A stretch of DNA of 28,372 bases, taken from positions 1 to 28,372 of the IMG/VR virus record IMGVR_UViG_2734482782_000001; one strand, given 5' to 3'. Position numbers and translations under genes: made by a program. Positions 3,614-28,372 of the stretch are shown here, piece after piece (position 1 is the first letter of the stretch; each line of letters starts with the position of its first letter). This DNA comes from a virus. Lineage: Duplodnaviria; Heunggongvirae; Uroviricota; Caudoviricetes. The notes beneath the pieces were generated by a model. That model searched no databases and was not told where the DNA came from. It was given only the letters and a program-made list of their open reading frames with translations.

Positions 3614-4370
3614 ATTTACACCCTTTCAAGCTATTTCTTTCAACGGAAAAACGTGCAATAAGATTGCAATCATCCAGTAAATCGATTGAACAAATTTCAT
3701 CTGCAAGTCGCATATTCATTGCAACCACCTGCTCAGGGGATGCATTGACTACCTCAACCAGATAAGTCCCACCAGATGCACCGTTGATGTCAGCACGATA
3801 TTCAGTTGGCGGGAATTCAGCCATAACTCTATGAACAGCAAGAGCAACTTGCATGTATTGTTCTGAAGAGCAACCTGACTTTTTGTATGCTTCATCCATA
3901 TCGTGAATTACCTCCTGCAAGAAGGCTTCTGCGTCATCCCTATGTTCTTCTTGGGATAACATTTTGCAATGACGTCCAAAATATTCTACGCATTTTGATA
4001 GTTTCCCTACCAAATATGCAACGCCACCAGCCCTGTAAGTAAACCACTTGGTTGGATACTTATCAGCTAAAGAATAGATGTAGTAGTCCGATTTTTCGAG
4101 TAGAGAAAAACGCTCAAGCAGCTTACAAAAAATCCGCGCAAAGTTAACGTCAGCATGTGGGAGGATAGCTTCAAGCATTTCTATCCCGACACTCACCTCA
4201 CCTTTTGCAATATGAGCCAAAGCTACAAGCGTGTCAGCAGGCGGAGTATGCTTAGAGCCATATTCCGAAACCACCTCTCGAAAGGTCCAAATATCAAGAG
4301 GTTGACCACTATTGATTATCTTAACCAACTGGTCAAAACGCTCTTCCGCTTTCAGTTTTGGTCTTGCCAC
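3600..4370 (-). CDS. Hypothetical cargo protein, 256 aa, no recognisable motifs
   Basis: Long ORF in the AT-rich island. The first start codon after the in-frame upstream stop is GTG at 4370 with a weak SD, so the start is uncertain. No P-loop or nucleotidyltransferase motif seen. Confidence 0.65.
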   Translation of the reverse strand: MARPKLKAEERFDQLVKIINSGQPLDIWTFREVVSEYGSKHTPPADTLVALAHIAKGEVSVGIEMLEAILPHADVNFARIFCKLLERFSLLEKSDYYIYSLADKYPTKWFTYRAGGVAYLVGKLSKCVEYFGRHCKMLSQEEHRDDAEAFLQEVIHDMDEAYKKSGCSSEQYMQVALAVHRVMAEFPPTEYRADINGASGGTYLVEVVNASPEQVVAMNMRLADEICSIDLLDDCNLIARFSVERNSLKGCKYAYN

Positions 4371-4399
4371 AGTACGCTCGCTACTTATCTTTTGGTTGA

Positions 4400-4429
4400 A
4401 TTTTATGTTCGCGTATACAGTTTAGTCAA
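4400..4429 (-). promoter_or_regulatory. Candidate sigma70 promoter for the 256-aa/131-aa cargo operon
   Basis: On the minus strand: -35 TTGACT (4429-4424), 18-nt spacer, -10 TAAAAT (4405-4400), about 30 nt upstream of the GTG start at 4370. Confidence 0.45.
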
Positions 4430-4490
4430 TCCGAAGCTCATGCCGCTGAGCCGTTTCGCACAAAATCATCCATGCAAAAGGGATTGGACT

Positions 4491-4838
4491 TCAACCTGGC
4501 ACTTTCTTACACGGGAAAGAGCCGATGATTTTCGGCGCGTCCATGCTGTTCTGCAGCAGTTGGACGTTCAGGAAACGCGTTTCGGTACCAGGGCGATGGA
4601 TATACTCAAACCCATAGTTGTTGCCATCTTTAGCAGGCATTAGACCCATTTTGATCTGCATGCCTGTACCGTCTTTGCCCAACATTTTAACCTTTTGGGA
4701 TGTTACGGTTTCGCCATTGATTTTAAACAATGAGTCAGGGATCGCGTCCATACGAAAGTTACCACATTGCATCGTTATAGTGTTTGCACTTGCGCCAACA
4801 GACGCTAACGCCAGCAATGAAAAAATCCATCGTTTCAT
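4491..4838 (-). CDS. Small secreted protein with Sec signal peptide (cargo)
   Basis: The track ORF starts further upstream, but the internal ATG at 4838 gives MKRWIFSLLALASVGASA|NT..., a classic n/h/c signal peptide with an A-S-A cleavage site. GAGGGGG RBS sits 10 nt upstream; the start lies 2 nt after the hub stop. About 40-48% GC. Confidence 0.65.
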   Translation of the reverse strand: MKRWIFSLLALASVGASANTITMQCGNFRMDAIPDSLFKINGETVTSQKVKMLGKDGTGMQIKMGLMPAKDGNNYGFEYIHRPGTETRFLNVQLLQNSMDAPKIIGSFPCKKVPG

Positions 4839-4840
4839 TT

Positions 4841-5905
4841 CTATAACCCCCTCTGCAATGCAGTGCTCGATGGCATATCCTGCGCGCCACGCGCTTCGCA
4901 CATCATATCCATATACCACGCTTGGCCCCTTGTGTCGCCAGTGTACATAATCCCACGCACAATATAAACGCCATCCGTTGCGATGCTGGCAGGCTGCGCC
5001 GTGGTACCGCTGAGCGTGATATTGCCGTCTGTATTCTGGTCGGTGATGCGGCCCCCAGCCATCGCGATATCGTTGTTCGACAGTGCGGTGCGGAATACCG
5101 AAGCCTGATCCAGCTGAATGAGTCCGTTAACCCGGATGTTCGGGTTTATCAGCGCACGGACGTTCACGCCGTTGCCGATGGTCTGCTGCGGCATGCCGAT
5201 AAGCCCGGTGGCGCTGTTGAGCACAATCGCGTCGTGAACATACTCGTTATTCGCCACCATCTGGCGCTGGCCGTCCACGAACTGCCATGTTGCGCCACAT
5301 TGCCCGGCCACGTTATCCATAAGATGCCGTGTCATGCCGAACAGCACCCTGCCCCGGGGAAAAACGGTAGCAGGCATTTCAGGCGTCAGGCCTTCGGTCG
5401 CGCCTTTGGCCTCGAAGTCTTTCATCAGCGCGCGGTTCACGTCTGCGACCGTATAACCGGCCGCCAGCGTCTGCGAGGTTATGCTGGTGGCAAAGGCCAG
5501 ATCTGTATCGGCTGCCTGAATCAGGACGTAGGAATCAATGGGGCTGTCTTTTCCTGTGACCGAGTAACGAATTTCGCCGCTAAAAATCAGACCGTAGTTC
5601 CGGCCATCACTCTGGCCCACGTCCGCCGCGTCAACCTCCCGCACGGTCCCGACGTCGCTTGCCGATACCTCCGGCGCGATACCGTCGTAACCGGCAATTA
5701 GCCGCACCTTAGAAAACTCCTGCCCGGTGATGCGGTTCACCGTATCTGCCGAGAGGTTGTAGATTTTGAACGTTCCCACCCGGGACGCGCTGCTGATGTT
5801 GAACCAGTCGATCGTAAAGGTCACTTTAAAATCGCTGAGCTCAATACCCTGCCCGTTCTCGTCCACGAGCTGCAGCTCGAAATGTCTCATCCAGTTCTGC
5901 GACAT
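4841..5905 (-). CDS. Baseplate hub / tail protein (P2 gpD / Mu gp44-like position)
   Basis: 354-aa ORF, ATG start, high GC, placed after the tape measure and small tail proteins. Confidence 0.55.
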   Translation of the reverse strand: MSQNWMRHFELQLVDENGQGIELSDFKVTFTIDWFNISSASRVGTFKIYNLSADTVNRITGQEFSKVRLIAGYDGIAPEVSASDVGTVREVDAADVGQSDGRNYGLIFSGEIRYSVTGKDSPIDSYVLIQAADTDLAFATSITSQTLAAGYTVADVNRALMKDFEAKGATEGLTPEMPATVFPRGRVLFGMTRHLMDNVAGQCGATWQFVDGQRQMVANNEYVHDAIVLNSATGLIGMPQQTIGNGVNVRALINPNIRVNGLIQLDQASVFRTALSNNDIAMAGGRITDQNTDGNITLSGTTAQPASIATDGVYIVRGIMYTGDTRGQAWYMDMMCEARGAQDMPSSTALQRGL

Positions 5906-24690: not shown

Positions 24691-25494
24691 CTAAATTTTG
24701 TTCACATCATCACGAAAGCTCGTTGCGTCCTGAAACGCCGAGTCTGCTTTTTGTTCTTCTCTGTAGCAGACGTCGACAAGCCCCTCCAGAAACGGTTTCC
24801 AGTTACGGGTCCACGTTCTGACGTGCAGATCCGGGACTCGCTTCAGTATCGCTTTATAGGCTGCAGTAGACGGCACCCCAGAAAATCCATTTCCGCTGCA
24901 GCGCTCGCAGGTTTTAAACACCGGCGCGCCGCGCTCGCTTGTGGCTTTGCGGTCGAGCACCTCACCTTTGCCACCGCAACGGCATCGAGCCAGTAGCTCA
25001 CCTTTACCGTTACATGCCGCGCATGTACGCTTGACCAGTTCGTGCTTGATTTTCGGCGGTACGATTTCCATTCCGTCAGAGTTGAATATTCCAGGATATT
25101 TGATCACATCCTCATACTGAGAGGTTAATCCGCTGCCGCTGCAGCTGTGACACGTCACGCTGGTTTCCGCTGAACGGGAGTATTCTGCAAAGGCGAATTG
25201 TGCGAGCACCAGCATGCACCAGCCAAACTCTCCTGCAGCTGCTTTACGTACATTCCTGGGCGCTGATTCCATTGCATGACGCGCCAGAGCCTGTACAGCC
25301 AACTGCTCATCGCTTTTGCTGATCCCGGTCTTACCAAAGAATGCAGCCAGACCAAACCGCGCGCGGCTGCTGGTGGTACCAATGGCCGCCATAACATCGG
25401 TGCCAGTGATACGATCTGGAGAGGTTCCTTTCACGTCGTCGCTGATGTGCATCCCCTGAGGGCTGAAGTGTTTAAGTGAAGCTTCCAGTTTCAT
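24691..25494 (-). CDS. Putative late-gene antiterminator (Q-like) with DnaJ-type zinc finger
   Basis: 267 aa, ATG overlapping the primase stop (ATGA). Four CxxCxGxG-type motifs (CHSCSGSG, CAACNGKG, CRCGGKG, CERCSGNG). Sits immediately upstream of a promoter/terminator unit and the lysis genes. Confidence 0.5.
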   Translation of the reverse strand: MKLEASLKHFSPQGMHISDDVKGTSPDRITGTDVMAAIGTTSSRARFGLAAFFGKTGISKSDEQLAVQALARHAMESAPRNVRKAAAGEFGWCMLVLAQFAFAEYSRSAETSVTCHSCSGSGLTSQYEDVIKYPGIFNSDGMEIVPPKIKHELVKRTCAACNGKGELLARCRCGGKGEVLDRKATSERGAPVFKTCERCSGNGFSGVPSTAAYKAILKRVPDLHVRTWTRNWKPFLEGLVDVCYREEQKADSAFQDATSFRDDVNKI

Positions 25495-26468
25495 GCGGCC
25501 ACCTGCTGCTTTTTATAGAATACCAACTCACGAACCTGATCGCCGTTCATGAGCATGTCGTTGAAGTCCCCGTTATCCGGGTAGTAGATGCTGATTTTTT
25601 CCAGGTCATTTTTTGCCAGTAAGTTGGCATGGGCACATTCCGTGGCCGCAGCCAATCCGGTGGCGCTGTTTACGTCTCGATCTGCGAAAATAATCAAATT
25701 CTTCACACCTGCAGGAACTCGGAATTTCTTCATGAATCCGCTGGTCATGGTGGCCCAGGTGTTAACGTTGTACAGCTGCTTGCAGGAAAGAGCCGTTTCG
25801 ATACCCTCGGCAATTCCGAGGGTCGTCGCTACCGGGAACATTCGAATAGCGACGGAACGGGCATGATCCAGATAGCTTTCGTCCTGAAGAGATTTCTGCC
25901 GCTTCGCTCCGGAAGAATCCCTTAGTTGGGCTTTCTGATTGCCGTCCAGTAAGGTTCTGTGCAGATAGCAAAGCTCGCCTTTGTCGTCAGTTGCGAGTGA
26001 ATACAGACACTGGTAAACCTTACCGCCGTAGCGTTGTTTATCATTGAACTTCACTGCCTCTTGTGGGAGCTGATAAATTCCCCTGGCCTGCAGATAATCC
26101 GCTCCGGTAGTTCCTTTCAGGTTGACCAGTTTCGAAAATTTGGACAGAACCCGATCACGGGCGCTTACTGCATCTGAAGTGCGCGGGAACGCTTCGCGGG
26201 TAAAGTTATTACCAATCAGCTGGTCTATTTCCCTGCAAATTTCATTGAATGGCTTCCCTTGTGTCAGAGTGACAAGCTTCATTCCGTCACCGCTGCCGCA
26301 GGTACAGATCCATGTTCCCCGGCCGTCCCGGTCATCAATACGCAGCTTTCCCCGCGCACCACATACCGGACATTCACCTTTAAAATGATTTCTGGCATTA
26401 ATGGGAGGTAACCCGAAGTGCTCAAAAATCATTGCCCATTGACCTTTTGCCGCTTCTGCCGTTTTCAT
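25491..26468 (-). CDS. DNA primase (zinc-ribbon plus Toprim domain)
   Basis: 325 aa, ATG overlapping the helicase stop. N-terminal Cys cluster CPVCG...CTCG. Toprim signatures IAEGIETALS (conserved Glu) and IIFADRDVN (DxD). Confidence 0.75.
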   Translation of the reverse strand: MKTAEAAKGQWAMIFEHFGLPPINARNHFKGECPVCGARGKLRIDDRDGRGTWICTCGSGDGMKLVTLTQGKPFNEICREIDQLIGNNFTREAFPRTSDAVSARDRVLSKFSKLVNLKGTTGADYLQARGIYQLPQEAVKFNDKQRYGGKVYQCLYSLATDDKGELCYLHRTLLDGNQKAQLRDSSGAKRQKSLQDESYLDHARSVAIRMFPVATTLGIAEGIETALSCKQLYNVNTWATMTSGFMKKFRVPAGVKNLIIFADRDVNSATGLAAATECAHANLLAKNDLEKISIYYPDNGDFNDMLMNGDQVRELVFYKKQQVAA

Positions 26469-28081
26469 GCTCTTTTTCCTAACTGCTGTTTGATATCGCT
26501 AATCGCTTTCTGTGCCTGCTGTACTGAGGATGGGGCTGCCATGCTTGTTGCCTCCTGCAGGCGCTTGGCCTTCTCCTGCCCTTTCGCATACGCAATCAAT
26601 TTGTGTCGGATGAAATTAGAGACGGTTGGCGTGATCTCCATCGGGAAATCGCTTAACCCGTTAGGCCACTCGTCAAACCGTTCGCGAAAGGTATTTGCGC
26701 ACCAGCCATCGCTGACGGGCTTTTTCCCCTGCGATACGCGCTGACGCTGATAGAATTTGATCTGACTCCACCAGGCCTGTTTCTCTGCCTTCGTGGGCTG
26801 ATGCTGGTTTTTACCCAGCTTTTTGAGTTTGCGGCCGGTGTCGGTGTCGACGTCCTCACCGCCCAGCGGCTTATGCCCACATTTCGGGCATACATAGACG
26901 CCAGCTGGCTTCATGTAATGGCATTGAGAGCATTCGTGTGGCAGCTTTTCGGCCCGTTCCTCAGCTGCGCGGCGCGCGCTTTCCTCCATGCCGTCAGACT
27001 TACCGGGAAGATCGTCGTACTCGATTGAATCCGGATAACCCAAACGGTGCACGGTACCGCTATGATCGAAGATGAGGCAGGACTCTTTACCCGGTGCGGT
27101 GCGCAGGCCACGCCCGAGCGCCTGCAGCCAGCGAATTTCGCTTTTTGTTGGCCTGGCGTAGATGATGCAACGAACGTCACTATCGAAGCCGGCCACCAGA
27201 ACGCCCACACTAACGATAATTTTCGTTGCACCGGTTTCAAAGCGGTGAATGATGGTCTGGCGTTCATCCACTGGAGTGTCGGCGGTCATGATCTCAGCGT
27301 TAACACCCGCAAGGTTAAACTGGATTGTCAGGTAATTGGCGTGGGCTACGTTGACGCAGAAAGCGATGGTAGGAAGATCCCGGCCATTCTCCAGCCAGTT
27401 CTGTACGATGTCGCCCACCAGCGTAGAGCCGCACATGATTTCAGCCAGCTGCGTTTCGTTGTAATCGCTGCCGTACTCAAGCGATGCTTTGGTTTTAACA
27501 CCTTTCAGATCCGGCTTAGTTGGCGCGTAAAATTCGTATTTACTCAGATCGCCACGCTGGATTAACTCGCCGATGGTGGTCGGCTTAATCAGTCGGTCAT
27601 AGTATTTGCCCAGGAACGGGGAAAACGGAGTACCCGACAGGCCAATCACCTTTACGCCTTTGCCGCGCAGACGTTCGATATCCTTCAGGATGCGTTTTTT
27701 ACGCAGGTGTGCTTCGTCGATAATCAGCAGATCGATATTTTCAGGAAAAACACGACGAATAAGCGTGTCGGCGCTGGCAATCTGAATTTTCCGGTCCGGA
27801 TCGTAGTTCGGGTGATCTGCCCAGATATAACCGATTTCATCCCCCGGTAACCCATACTCCACGAACCGATTAGCCGTCTGACCGATCAGGATGGTGTACG
27901 GTGCACAGAACAGGACGCGCATACCACGGCTGACAAACCCGGCGACGATGAAGGCGGCCAAACCCGTTTTACCGCTACCGGTTGGCGAGTACACCATGAA
28001 GGTGTCGTTTGCCTTCCAGTCACGGCGCAACATGTTTAGCGCTCGTTCCTGTGCAAAATTCGGCGTGATCGTCAGCTCCAT
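26465..28081 (-). CDS. SF2 DEAD/DEAH-box replicative helicase with C-terminal zinc ribbon
   Basis: 538 aa, ATG with GGGGG SD. Walker A SPTGSGKT, motif II LIIDEAH, motif III SGT, motif VI QALGRGLR, and C-terminal CSQC...CPKCGH. Confidence 0.85.
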   Translation of the reverse strand: MELTITPNFAQERALNMLRRDWKANDTFMVYSPTGSGKTGLAAFIVAGFVSRGMRVLFCAPYTILIGQTANRFVEYGLPGDEIGYIWADHPNYDPDRKIQIASADTLIRRVFPENIDLLIIDEAHLRKKRILKDIERLRGKGVKVIGLSGTPFSPFLGKYYDRLIKPTTIGELIQRGDLSKYEFYAPTKPDLKGVKTKASLEYGSDYNETQLAEIMCGSTLVGDIVQNWLENGRDLPTIAFCVNVAHANYLTIQFNLAGVNAEIMTADTPVDERQTIIHRFETGATKIIVSVGVLVAGFDSDVRCIIYARPTKSEIRWLQALGRGLRTAPGKESCLIFDHSGTVHRLGYPDSIEYDDLPGKSDGMEESARRAAEERAEKLPHECSQCHYMKPAGVYVCPKCGHKPLGGEDVDTDTGRKLKKLGKNQHQPTKAEKQAWWSQIKFYQRQRVSQGKKPVSDGWCANTFRERFDEWPNGLSDFPMEITPTVSNFIRHKLIAYAKGQEKAKRLQEATSMAAPSSVQQAQKAISDIKQQLGKRA

Positions 28082-28372
28082 TGTGCTGCCCCCGTGCTGA
28101 TGAGATAATAATTTTGTGATGTGGTTTTCATGGATTCCCCCTCACATGGCTGGTGGCCTCCCCAAAGGCTGCCAGCCTCCCTTCTGATTCAGCTCCTCTG
28201 AAAAAATCACTCTTCCAGGAAGAACCCTTTACGTTTCTCAGCGCCTGAGCGCTTTGTACTATCTTGCTGATACAGGCGTTTTTTAAATTGCGCCCTTAAG
28301 ACAGTGATCTACTTAACCAATGGATCTCTCCTGTTGGAAAAGACCCTATTCCTACCCCTACACCCAATCCCC
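28082..28372 (-). promoter_or_regulatory. Upstream non-coding leader/regulatory region of the replication operon
   Basis: All three minus-strand frames hit stops within about 80 nt of the window edge. Contains a 19-codon uORF (MKTTSQNYYLISTGAAQWS) with GAGGGGG SD whose stop overlaps the helicase ATG, and a short inverted repeat AGCGC-N4-GCGCT. Confidence 0.35.

Follow-up and report, generated by a model that had tools for sequence, protein, structure and literature searches.

The leader studied here lies at the 3′ end of the window, by which we mean the whole stretch of 28,372 nt of DNA that was analysed. All genes in the window are located on the minus strand. The leader (28082..28372) precedes the gene for an SF2 helicase of 538 amino acids (26465..28081, minus strand; Pfam ResIII, DEAD and Helicase_C; phrog_16), and this gene is followed by those for a toprim/zinc-ribbon primase (25491..26468) and a Q-type antiterminator (24691..25494). 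The helicase and primase genes share an ATGA overlap at 26465-26468, as do the primase and Q-antiterminator genes at 25491-25494, and a short upstream open reading frame (uORF) stands at the head of this chain of overlapping reading frames. The window DNA shares 98% identity with a prophage of E. coli DX6, ∼90% with the phages Fostie and YP3, 88% with Cronobacter phage ENT39118 (Hendrixvirinae) and 81% with Salmonella phage Fels-1. Judged by its sequence, the source element is a Fels-1/ENT39118-like lambdoid prophage.

In L001, a complete relative, the order is a leftward LexA-type repressor gene, a cro-like HTH gene, a gene of 105 amino acids, a gap of 413 nt, the helicase gene, the primase gene and further genes. 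The 105-aa gene occupies the cII position and belongs to phrog_852, a family that assigns it no function. The edge of the window falls 291 nt into the ∼413-nt gap between the cII-position gene and the helicase gene. An earlier note on this DNA had taken the region for an untranslated helicase leader that continues past the window. This was borne out, as relatives carry 122 nt more of it. Moreover, the region did not prove to be the 3′ end of a gene, since the upstream gene of L001 ends at 4878, 122 nt past the window edge. The absence of a long ORF was likewise confirmed: all six frames of 28082..28372 are broken by stop codons, and the longest listed ORF has 31 amino acids. The proposal that this is the early promoter region, however, did not hold. 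In L001, a sigma-70-like match (4261-4288) was found instead before the cro-like gene, ∼1 kb upstream of the helicase gene, and it was the sole one in the scanned stretch 4200-5500. The generic promoter/terminator scan revealed no sense-strand promoter-like sites in 27900-28372 of the window and no site of any kind within 28082-28372; its single match over 27900-28372 was terminator-like and lay within the helicase gene (27991-28005). The predicted early promoter is, in other words, outside the window, ∼1 kb upstream of the helicase gene.

The uORF and the helicase start

The uORF (28131..28072, minus strand) consists of 19 codons, encodes MKTTSQNYYLISTGAAQWS and is preceded by its own Shine-Dalgarno (SD) sequence GAGGGGG (28137..28143, minus strand), which is located 5 nt before the ATG and of which each position is 90-100% conserved among 40 haplotypes. 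The uORF terminates at a TGA codon (28074..28072, minus strand) that lies 5-7 nt beyond the helicase ATG (28079..28081, minus strand), inside ATGGAGCTGA, and this ATG is the first start of the 538-aa ORF. A 19-codon uORF with a strong SD sequence, ending in ATGGAGCTGA over the helicase start, had been described in the earlier note, and the 10-nt overlap was indeed read in the sequence. In addition, the helicase gene has an SD sequence of its own, GGGGG (28089..28093, minus strand), positioned 7 nt before its ATG within uORF codons 13-15. In relatives this SD sequence reads GGGAG or AGGAG, with an invariant CC/GG core.

The arrangement in which the uORF has its own SD sequence and a stop codon in ATGGAGCTGA is preserved in 152 of 153 relatives. 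This open frame is not independent evidence for a role of the uORF, because the nucleotides themselves are nearly invariant. The single exception is L209, where, through a 20-nt deletion, the uORF ATG has become joined in frame to the helicase gene. In this viral contig (about 4084-4392, minus strand), the deletion within the uORF also takes out the −10 element of the antisense promoter predicted below. Among the variant alleles of the uORF, 21 are nonsynonymous, 9 are synonymous and none creates a stop codon, as compared to 117:34:11 for all possible single changes. The lack of stop-creating alleles (0 of 30, with ∼2 expected) is not significant. Several substitutions are radical (Y8D, Y8H, L10H, L10R and N7I), and the C-terminal half of the uORF varies freely, being dictated by the overlapping SD sequence and start codon of the helicase gene. 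With 21:9 against a random expectation of 117:34, no purifying selection at the amino-acid level was seen on the uORF peptide, and such a near-random ratio implies that the peptide is not under selection. If the uORF matters, it would be the act of its translation that counts, not the peptide. Translational coupling from the uORF to the helicase gene is plausible and would fit the style of this operon with its ATGA junctions. Strict coupling, however, is unlikely, because the helicase SD sequence is the gene's own and conserved, and because relatives that lack the uORF manage without it.

Other small reading frames in the leader were considered and rejected, namely those on the plus strand, which correspond to hypothetical proteins in phage Fostie, and one of 22 amino acids on the minus strand; all of these cross a T/A run of variable length. 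The two opposite-strand hypothetical proteins annotated in the leader of Fostie (L002 4931-5053 and 5103-5219) are probably spurious, because the T/A run, which measures 4-7 nt in close relatives, shifts any ORF that crosses it.

A conserved cassette with a candidate antisense promoter

The upstream regions of 82 loci gathered by helicase homology were aligned, and extra loci were added by DNA pattern from viral, genome and metagenome collections; the conservation profile was based on 40 haplotypes picked by helicase homology alone. A hairpin, the uORF SD sequence and the uORF together form a discrete cassette that makes up the proximal ∼100 nt of the leader. Conservation amounts to 97-99% over the block that extends from the hairpin to uORF codon 11, which is above that of the adjoining helicase codons. 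Across at least nine genera, this core out-conserves the flanking helicase codons, and it does so even in comparison with Fels-1, where a gene is inserted just upstream. The cassette was always found before this helicase gene, and a search of phage, plasmid, genome and metagenome collections did not reveal it before other genes. Klebsiella phage KPP5665-2 and Providencia phage PSTCR3 have the distal blocks of the leader and a homologous helicase N-terminus (MLNITPNFAQER), with which the helicase N-terminus MELTITPNFAQER of the window aligns from residue 1, but they are devoid of the ∼80-nt cassette. In these phages the helicase ATG is directly preceded by GAGGGG or GAGGAA, and the helicase SD sequence of the window is homologous to the GAGGGG before the helicase ATG of KPP5665-2, where there is no uORF. 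Since the Klebsiella and Providencia relatives use the homologous SD sequence directly, the cassette represents a clade-specific addition before a surviving ribosome-binding site of the helicase gene.

The Fels-1/phi467 group carries a 122-aa gene (phrog_1347; L083 3106-3474, which is Fels-1 STM0899, and L087 1134-1502) between the distal leader and the cassette. Four loci (L231, L245, L251 and L255) combine a Fels-1-type upstream gene with the 3′ half of a main-type cassette and, since they mix the two types, they point to recombination within or beside the cassette.

On the plus strand, a sigma-70 promoter directed away from the helicase gene is predicted at 28081..28109 from its motif and its conservation footprint. 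The predicted elements are a −35 sequence TTGTGC (28081-86), a 17-nt spacer, the TG of an extended −10 (28101-02) and the −10 sequence GATAAT (28104-09), and the Fels-1 counterpart reads TTGTCC-17-TGcGATAAT. Within the whole window, TGnnATAAT occurs on either strand only here (56.7 kb of two-strand sequence). Likewise, TTG-N(16-18)-TGnnATAAT has its sole match on both strands at this site, with 0.13 matches expected per window from dinucleotide shuffles. The predicted −35 element matches at only three of six positions, and the plus-strand site goes undetected in the generic promoter scan. Among the 40 haplotypes, TTGT is 100% conserved, the spacer, apart from the helicase SD core, is variable (53-95% conserved) but of constant length, ATGnGATAAT is 100% conserved with only the n variable, and the six discriminator positions are variable at 80-100%. 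From the predicted +1 at 28116, 7 nt after the −10, up to ∼28187, nearly all bases are 95-100% conserved, position 28154 having 79%. Furthermore, the variable codon positions of the uORF are exactly the unconstrained positions of the promoter. This footprint was read only after the motif had been noticed and is, as such, a post hoc observation, and the invariance of CAATG is explained in part by the helicase start codon. A −10 element on the sense strand (TATTAT in the uORF) was rejected, as it lacks both a −35 and a TG, has a variable first base and leaves the downstream invariance unexplained. The conservation footprint as a whole points to an extended −10 promoter on the plus strand, with which it would match.

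The short inverted repeats mentioned in the earlier note include one that is real, the pair GGCTGGCAGCCT/AGGCCACCAGCC (28148..28177), with 12-nt arms and a 6-nt loop. This hairpin is fully paired in RNA from the plus strand only. In the antisense orientation all 12 pairs, two of them G.U, are formed in 147 of 155 sequences, whereas the stem of the sense RNA is interrupted by C.A and A.C mismatches and is fully paired in none of the 155. For the form present in the window, the folding energies were −22.1 kcal/mol for antisense versus −17.9 kcal/mol for sense. The lineage-fixed transitions 9G>A, 21G>A and 4T>C keep a G.U pair in the antisense RNA and create an A.C mismatch in the sense RNA. When transitions are counted by event, however, the five that favour the antisense fold and the four that favour the sense fold, the latter mostly singletons, are nearly balanced, and no two-sided covariation was found in the stem pairs.

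Based on conservation and folding, we predict a cis-antisense RNA of ∼70-75 nt (28116..28190, plus strand) with UCCCUUCUGAUU as its tail. In the predicted fold, stem-loop I would contain the anti-SD and anti-AUG sequences, while stem-loop II would correspond to the GC-rich 12-bp hairpin. The antisense 75-mer folded at −29.1 kcal/mol with a z-score of −3.44, as opposed to −0.99 for its sense complement. Over longer stretches, the z-score was −3.1 for 147 nt of antisense RNA and −0.28 for the 171-nt sense leader, which is no better than shuffled sequences. No intrinsic terminator was recognised after the hairpin, where the tail UCCCUUCU has 4 U in 8, so that the 3′ end of the RNA is undefined. 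The hairpin was also rejected as an intrinsic terminator or attenuator of the sense strand: there is no U run behind it, and it precedes the uORF instead of following it. Long-range pairing of GACCCAATTCCT with AGGAATAGGGTC around the G-rich tract of the distal leader was dismissed as well, as its left arm varies without compensation. A search of the whole spacer against Rfam, on both strands, returned only eukaryotic families at chance level (E ≤ 10). Covariation was nearly absent from the consensus fold of the whole spacer, whichever strand was used (terms of −1.7 and −0.6 kcal/mol), and we make no claim for a structured leader of the riboswitch or put type. Searching full texts for the cassette sequence yielded no papers, and a keyword search of the literature found no leader or antisense system specific to this module.

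The explanation that we prefer, tentatively and with a likelihood somewhat short of even, is that a ∼70-nt cis-antisense RNA acts over the ribosome-binding site of the uORF in conjunction with translational coupling. We infer the activity of the promoter, the existence and length of the RNA, the coupling and the physiological role from sequence features. A constitutive extended −10 promoter on the plus strand, overlapping the helicase start codon, would fire away from the helicase gene at ∼28116. Its product would be an RNA of ∼70 nt with two stem-loops that is perfectly complementary to the SD sequence and AUG of the uORF and to the adjoining upstream hairpin. Pairing of this RNA with the rightward early mRNA would block translation of the uORF, and RNA polymerase at the antisense promoter would collide with rightward transcription. 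Ribosomes that translate the uORF would cross the helicase SD sequence and terminate 5-7 nt past the helicase AUG, where termination could be followed by reinitiation. Loss of uORF translation would thus lower initiation at the helicase gene, because the uORF ends at the helicase AUG and runs over its SD sequence. The overlapping junctions would pass the lowered expression on to the primase and Q genes. Overall, expression of the replication genes would be restrained, for instance to prevent leakage in the lysogenic state or to set the timing once the prophage is induced.

Conceivably, the region could also serve as a plain translational leader without any antisense RNA, in which the uORF recruits ribosomes that reinitiate at the helicase gene, the hairpin stabilises or insulates the mRNA 5′ of the SD sequence, and the conservation reflects the needs of the sense mRNA. 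We consider this somewhat unlikely. It would account for the invariance of the SD sequence, the AUG and the ATGGAGCTGA overlap, for the survival of the stop codon upon a synonymous change in the helicase gene (CTG to CTA, which turns TGA into TAA), and for coupling as the style of an operon with ATGA overlaps between helicase, primase and Q. A few singleton variants of the hairpin even keep the sense pairing and break the antisense pairing. On the other hand, a plain leader leaves unexplained why ATTATC-n-CAT and GCACAA do not vary when the bases separating them do, why the invariance starts 15 nt inside the uORF, and why the hairpin is fully paired on the opposite strand only. In addition, the sense structure is no better than shuffled (z = −0.3 and −1.0), the helicase gene has its own SD sequence, and its homologues work without a uORF.

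The distal leader

The distal leader is likewise conserved. It contains the second copy of a GTAY-N10-GTAC motif, TGTATCAGCAAGATAGTAC (28256..28274, minus strand; direct-repeat family D2), of which the first copy lies past the window edge (L001 4949-4967); the copies are 151 nt apart in L001. Both copies flank a G-rich tract, and they are kept in the leaders of Fels-1, phi467 and KPP5665-2 despite a differing intervening sequence. By its sequence, the pair looks like protein-binding sites, such as an operator or an origin. Of the G-rich and C-poor tract itself, the 3′ end is found at the edge of the window (28343..28372, minus strand), and the tract runs on outside it (L001 4965-5034). In L001, it contains 34 G and 3 C in 70 nt, a GC skew of +0.88 on the sense strand, and it is conserved as far as the Providencia phage PSTCR3. 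The leftward, plus-strand transcript of this tract would be C-rich and G-poor, like Rho loading sites, whereas in the rightward leader the tract would turn a long untranslated RNA into a poor substrate for Rho.

Several further observations concern this part of the leader. The window ends in the G-rich tract, and the ends of at least eight unrelated contigs from IMG/VR and metagenomes, among them L004, L020, L024, L028, L034, L038, L081 and L243, fall no more than ∼30 nt from there. That unrelated contigs should end at the same point of the G tract suggests a recurrent assembly break or a module boundary. A block of high conservation includes two GATC (Dam) sites, at 28306-28309 and 28323-28326, 17 nt apart. 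The corresponding position in relatives is likewise occupied by two GATC sites, which there form a perfect inverted repeat (TAGATCTCGATCTA in phi467 and KPP5665-2, AGATCT...AGATCT in PSTCR3). A 13-bp palindrome, TCTTCC(A)GGAAGA (28211-28223), is conserved at 83-100% per position in the main group, with 11 of 13 positions invariant, and the Fels-1 group has a coding gene in its place. Beyond the window, L001 4896-4913 (minus strand of the locus) contains a terminator-like hairpin, CAGGCACCTTTAAGCCTG then CTTCTGTTCG, that faces leftward transcripts. This hairpin is located just after the stop codon of the cII-position gene, a few of its stem pairs show compensatory changes, and it could, judging from its sequence, halt leftward RNA before the immunity region.

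An origin function is possible for the distal leader in view of its sequence. Taken further, the hairpin and the conserved blocks together might form a replication element at the DNA level, being part of an origin or a site where helicase, primase or a regulator binds or is loaded, with the uORF and the promoter motif as incidental features. Such an element would be in line with conservation throughout the spacer, with the paired GTAY-N10-GTAC motifs, the two GATC sites, an A-rich run, the 13-bp palindrome and the G-rich tract, with the adjoining helicase-primase genes, and with the retention of the distal blocks in the Klebsiella and Providencia phages that have no cassette. The cassette, however, is missing in relatives with the same helicase and distal blocks, which argues that it is not an essential component of an origin. 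Moreover, the G.U-type asymmetry of the stem is a signature of RNA, whereas a DNA element would carry mismatches on both strands. For these reasons we regard a DNA-level element as unlikely.

Similarly doubtful is a more elaborate version of our preferred antisense reading. In this version, the leader would be a replication-licensing switch in the style of a plasmid but in a temperate phage: a constitutive ∼70-nt antisense RNA and a coupled leader ORF would gate the helicase-primase operon, the G-rich tract would be a one-way gate for Rho, and the paired GTAY-N10-GTAC motifs would mark an origin that is activated by transcription. As to the gate, rightward early RNA would be resistant to Rho, and the C-rich leftward RNA would be terminated.

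It is very unlikely that the cassette has no present function and is a recently spread mosaic joint or recombination linker that merely appears conserved through its youth or through recombinational homogenisation. Such a view would agree with the recombinant loci L231, L245, L251 and L255, which switch type inside or next to the cassette, and with the 20-nt deletion in the cassette of L209. Against it, the block surpasses the neighbouring helicase codons in conservation when both are compared between the same genomes, and does so across nine or more genera. Its invariant and variable positions, moreover, form a structured and not a uniform pattern. Lastly, despite its strong SD sequence and a frame that is open in 152 of 153 relatives, the uORF is most improbable as a source of a functional 19-residue micropeptide, since its substitutions are as nonsynonymous as random ones and often radical (Y to D, L to R, N to I) and its C-terminal half is free to vary, being set by the helicase SD sequence and start.

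Relation to known antisense and leader systems

The replication region of lambda contains a leftward promoter, pO, from which a short antisense RNA is made and which interferes with pR transcription into the replication genes (PMC3985674), and oop RNA was detected at the same map position by RNA-seq in the Salmonella prophage BTP1 (PMC7067206). The leftward promoter predicted here resembles pO/oop in its location at the junction of the cII-position gene and the first replication gene, where it would be convergent with pR-driven early transcription. The oop RNA of lambda has a length of 77 nt, and the predicted RNA of ∼70-75 nt would likewise be a short and structured antisense RNA. No sequence similarity to oop was recognised and the Rfam search gave no match to it, although Rfam may contain no oop model. 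A further difference is that lambda oop overlaps the 3′ end of cII and targets the cII mRNA, whereas the predicted RNA covers the uORF ribosome-binding site and the hairpin only; a distance of ∼300 nt separates the conserved antisense block from the cII-position gene (gene end in L001 at 4878). Lambda oop ends at a good intrinsic terminator, whereas there is a weak U tract here, and the replication genes of lambda are O and P, as opposed to an SF2 helicase and a toprim primase.

The control of plasmid replication offers a second comparison. In the CopA-tap-repA system of R1 and the Inc RNA-repY-repZ system of IncI-alpha/IncB, a short leader ORF has its own SD sequence, and its stop codon overlaps with the replication-gene start. 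A small stem-loop antisense RNA, made constitutively, is complementary to the leader in both cases, and the replication gene is translated less when translation of the leader ORF is blocked. The rep ribosome-binding site of R1 and ColIb-P9 is sequestered, making the coupling obligatory. The present locus is like R1 and ColIb-P9 in that the leader uORF has its own SD sequence GAGGGGG and a stop codon in ATGGAGCTGA at the start of the replication gene. As in R1, a stem-loop antisense RNA would lie over the ribosome-binding site of the leader ORF, here predicted from the motif, the fold and the antisense-specific pairing. In contrast to R1 and ColIb-P9, the helicase SD sequence is exposed and conserved at its 7-nt spacing, with no significant sense structure (z = −0.28), and the locus belongs to the operon of a temperate phage, not to a plasmid replicon, and has no homology to these systems. 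A third parallel is sar of P22, a ∼68-nt cis-antisense RNA on ant, of which the promoter lies inside or next to the gene and which crosses the ribosome-binding site and represses translation. Here too, a small cis-antisense RNA would be transcribed over a ribosome-binding site. The target, however, would be the uORF site and not that of the main gene, and the genes are unrelated and without sequence similarity. Finally, the uORF stop codon within 10 nt of the helicase AUG recalls generic coupled ORFs (ATGA, ATGnnnnTGA), from which the present case differs in that the upstream partner has only 19 codons, encodes an unconserved peptide and resides on a cassette that is absent from relatives.

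We conclude that the locus is best read as being like lambda pO/oop in position and like P22 sar and R1 CopA-tap-repA in logic. It does not qualify as a member of the pO/oop or R1 families, since an intrinsic terminator, overlap with the cII-position gene, a sequestered ribosome-binding site of the helicase gene and homology are all lacking. What the leader most likely contains in addition, from its sequence, would be an unannotated antisense unit of a pO/oop-like kind.

The helicase-primase replication module is widespread among prophages of the Enterobacteriaceae. Of 5,426 complete E. coli genomes, 87 were found to carry it, and it is also present in Fels-1 (Salmonella LT2) and, among others, in Cronobacter, Yersinia, Citrobacter and Enterobacter. 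Public records leave its control region virtually without annotation, showing either nothing or doubtful small ORFs on the opposite strand. Even if the antisense RNA is not real, the leader is an example of a conserved uORF of which the conservation is not about the peptide. If the antisense RNA and the coupled leader are both real, they would provide a testable handle on how such prophages keep their replication genes silent or timed, and they would extend the logic of lambda pO/oop and of plasmid CopA-tap to a different replication machinery.
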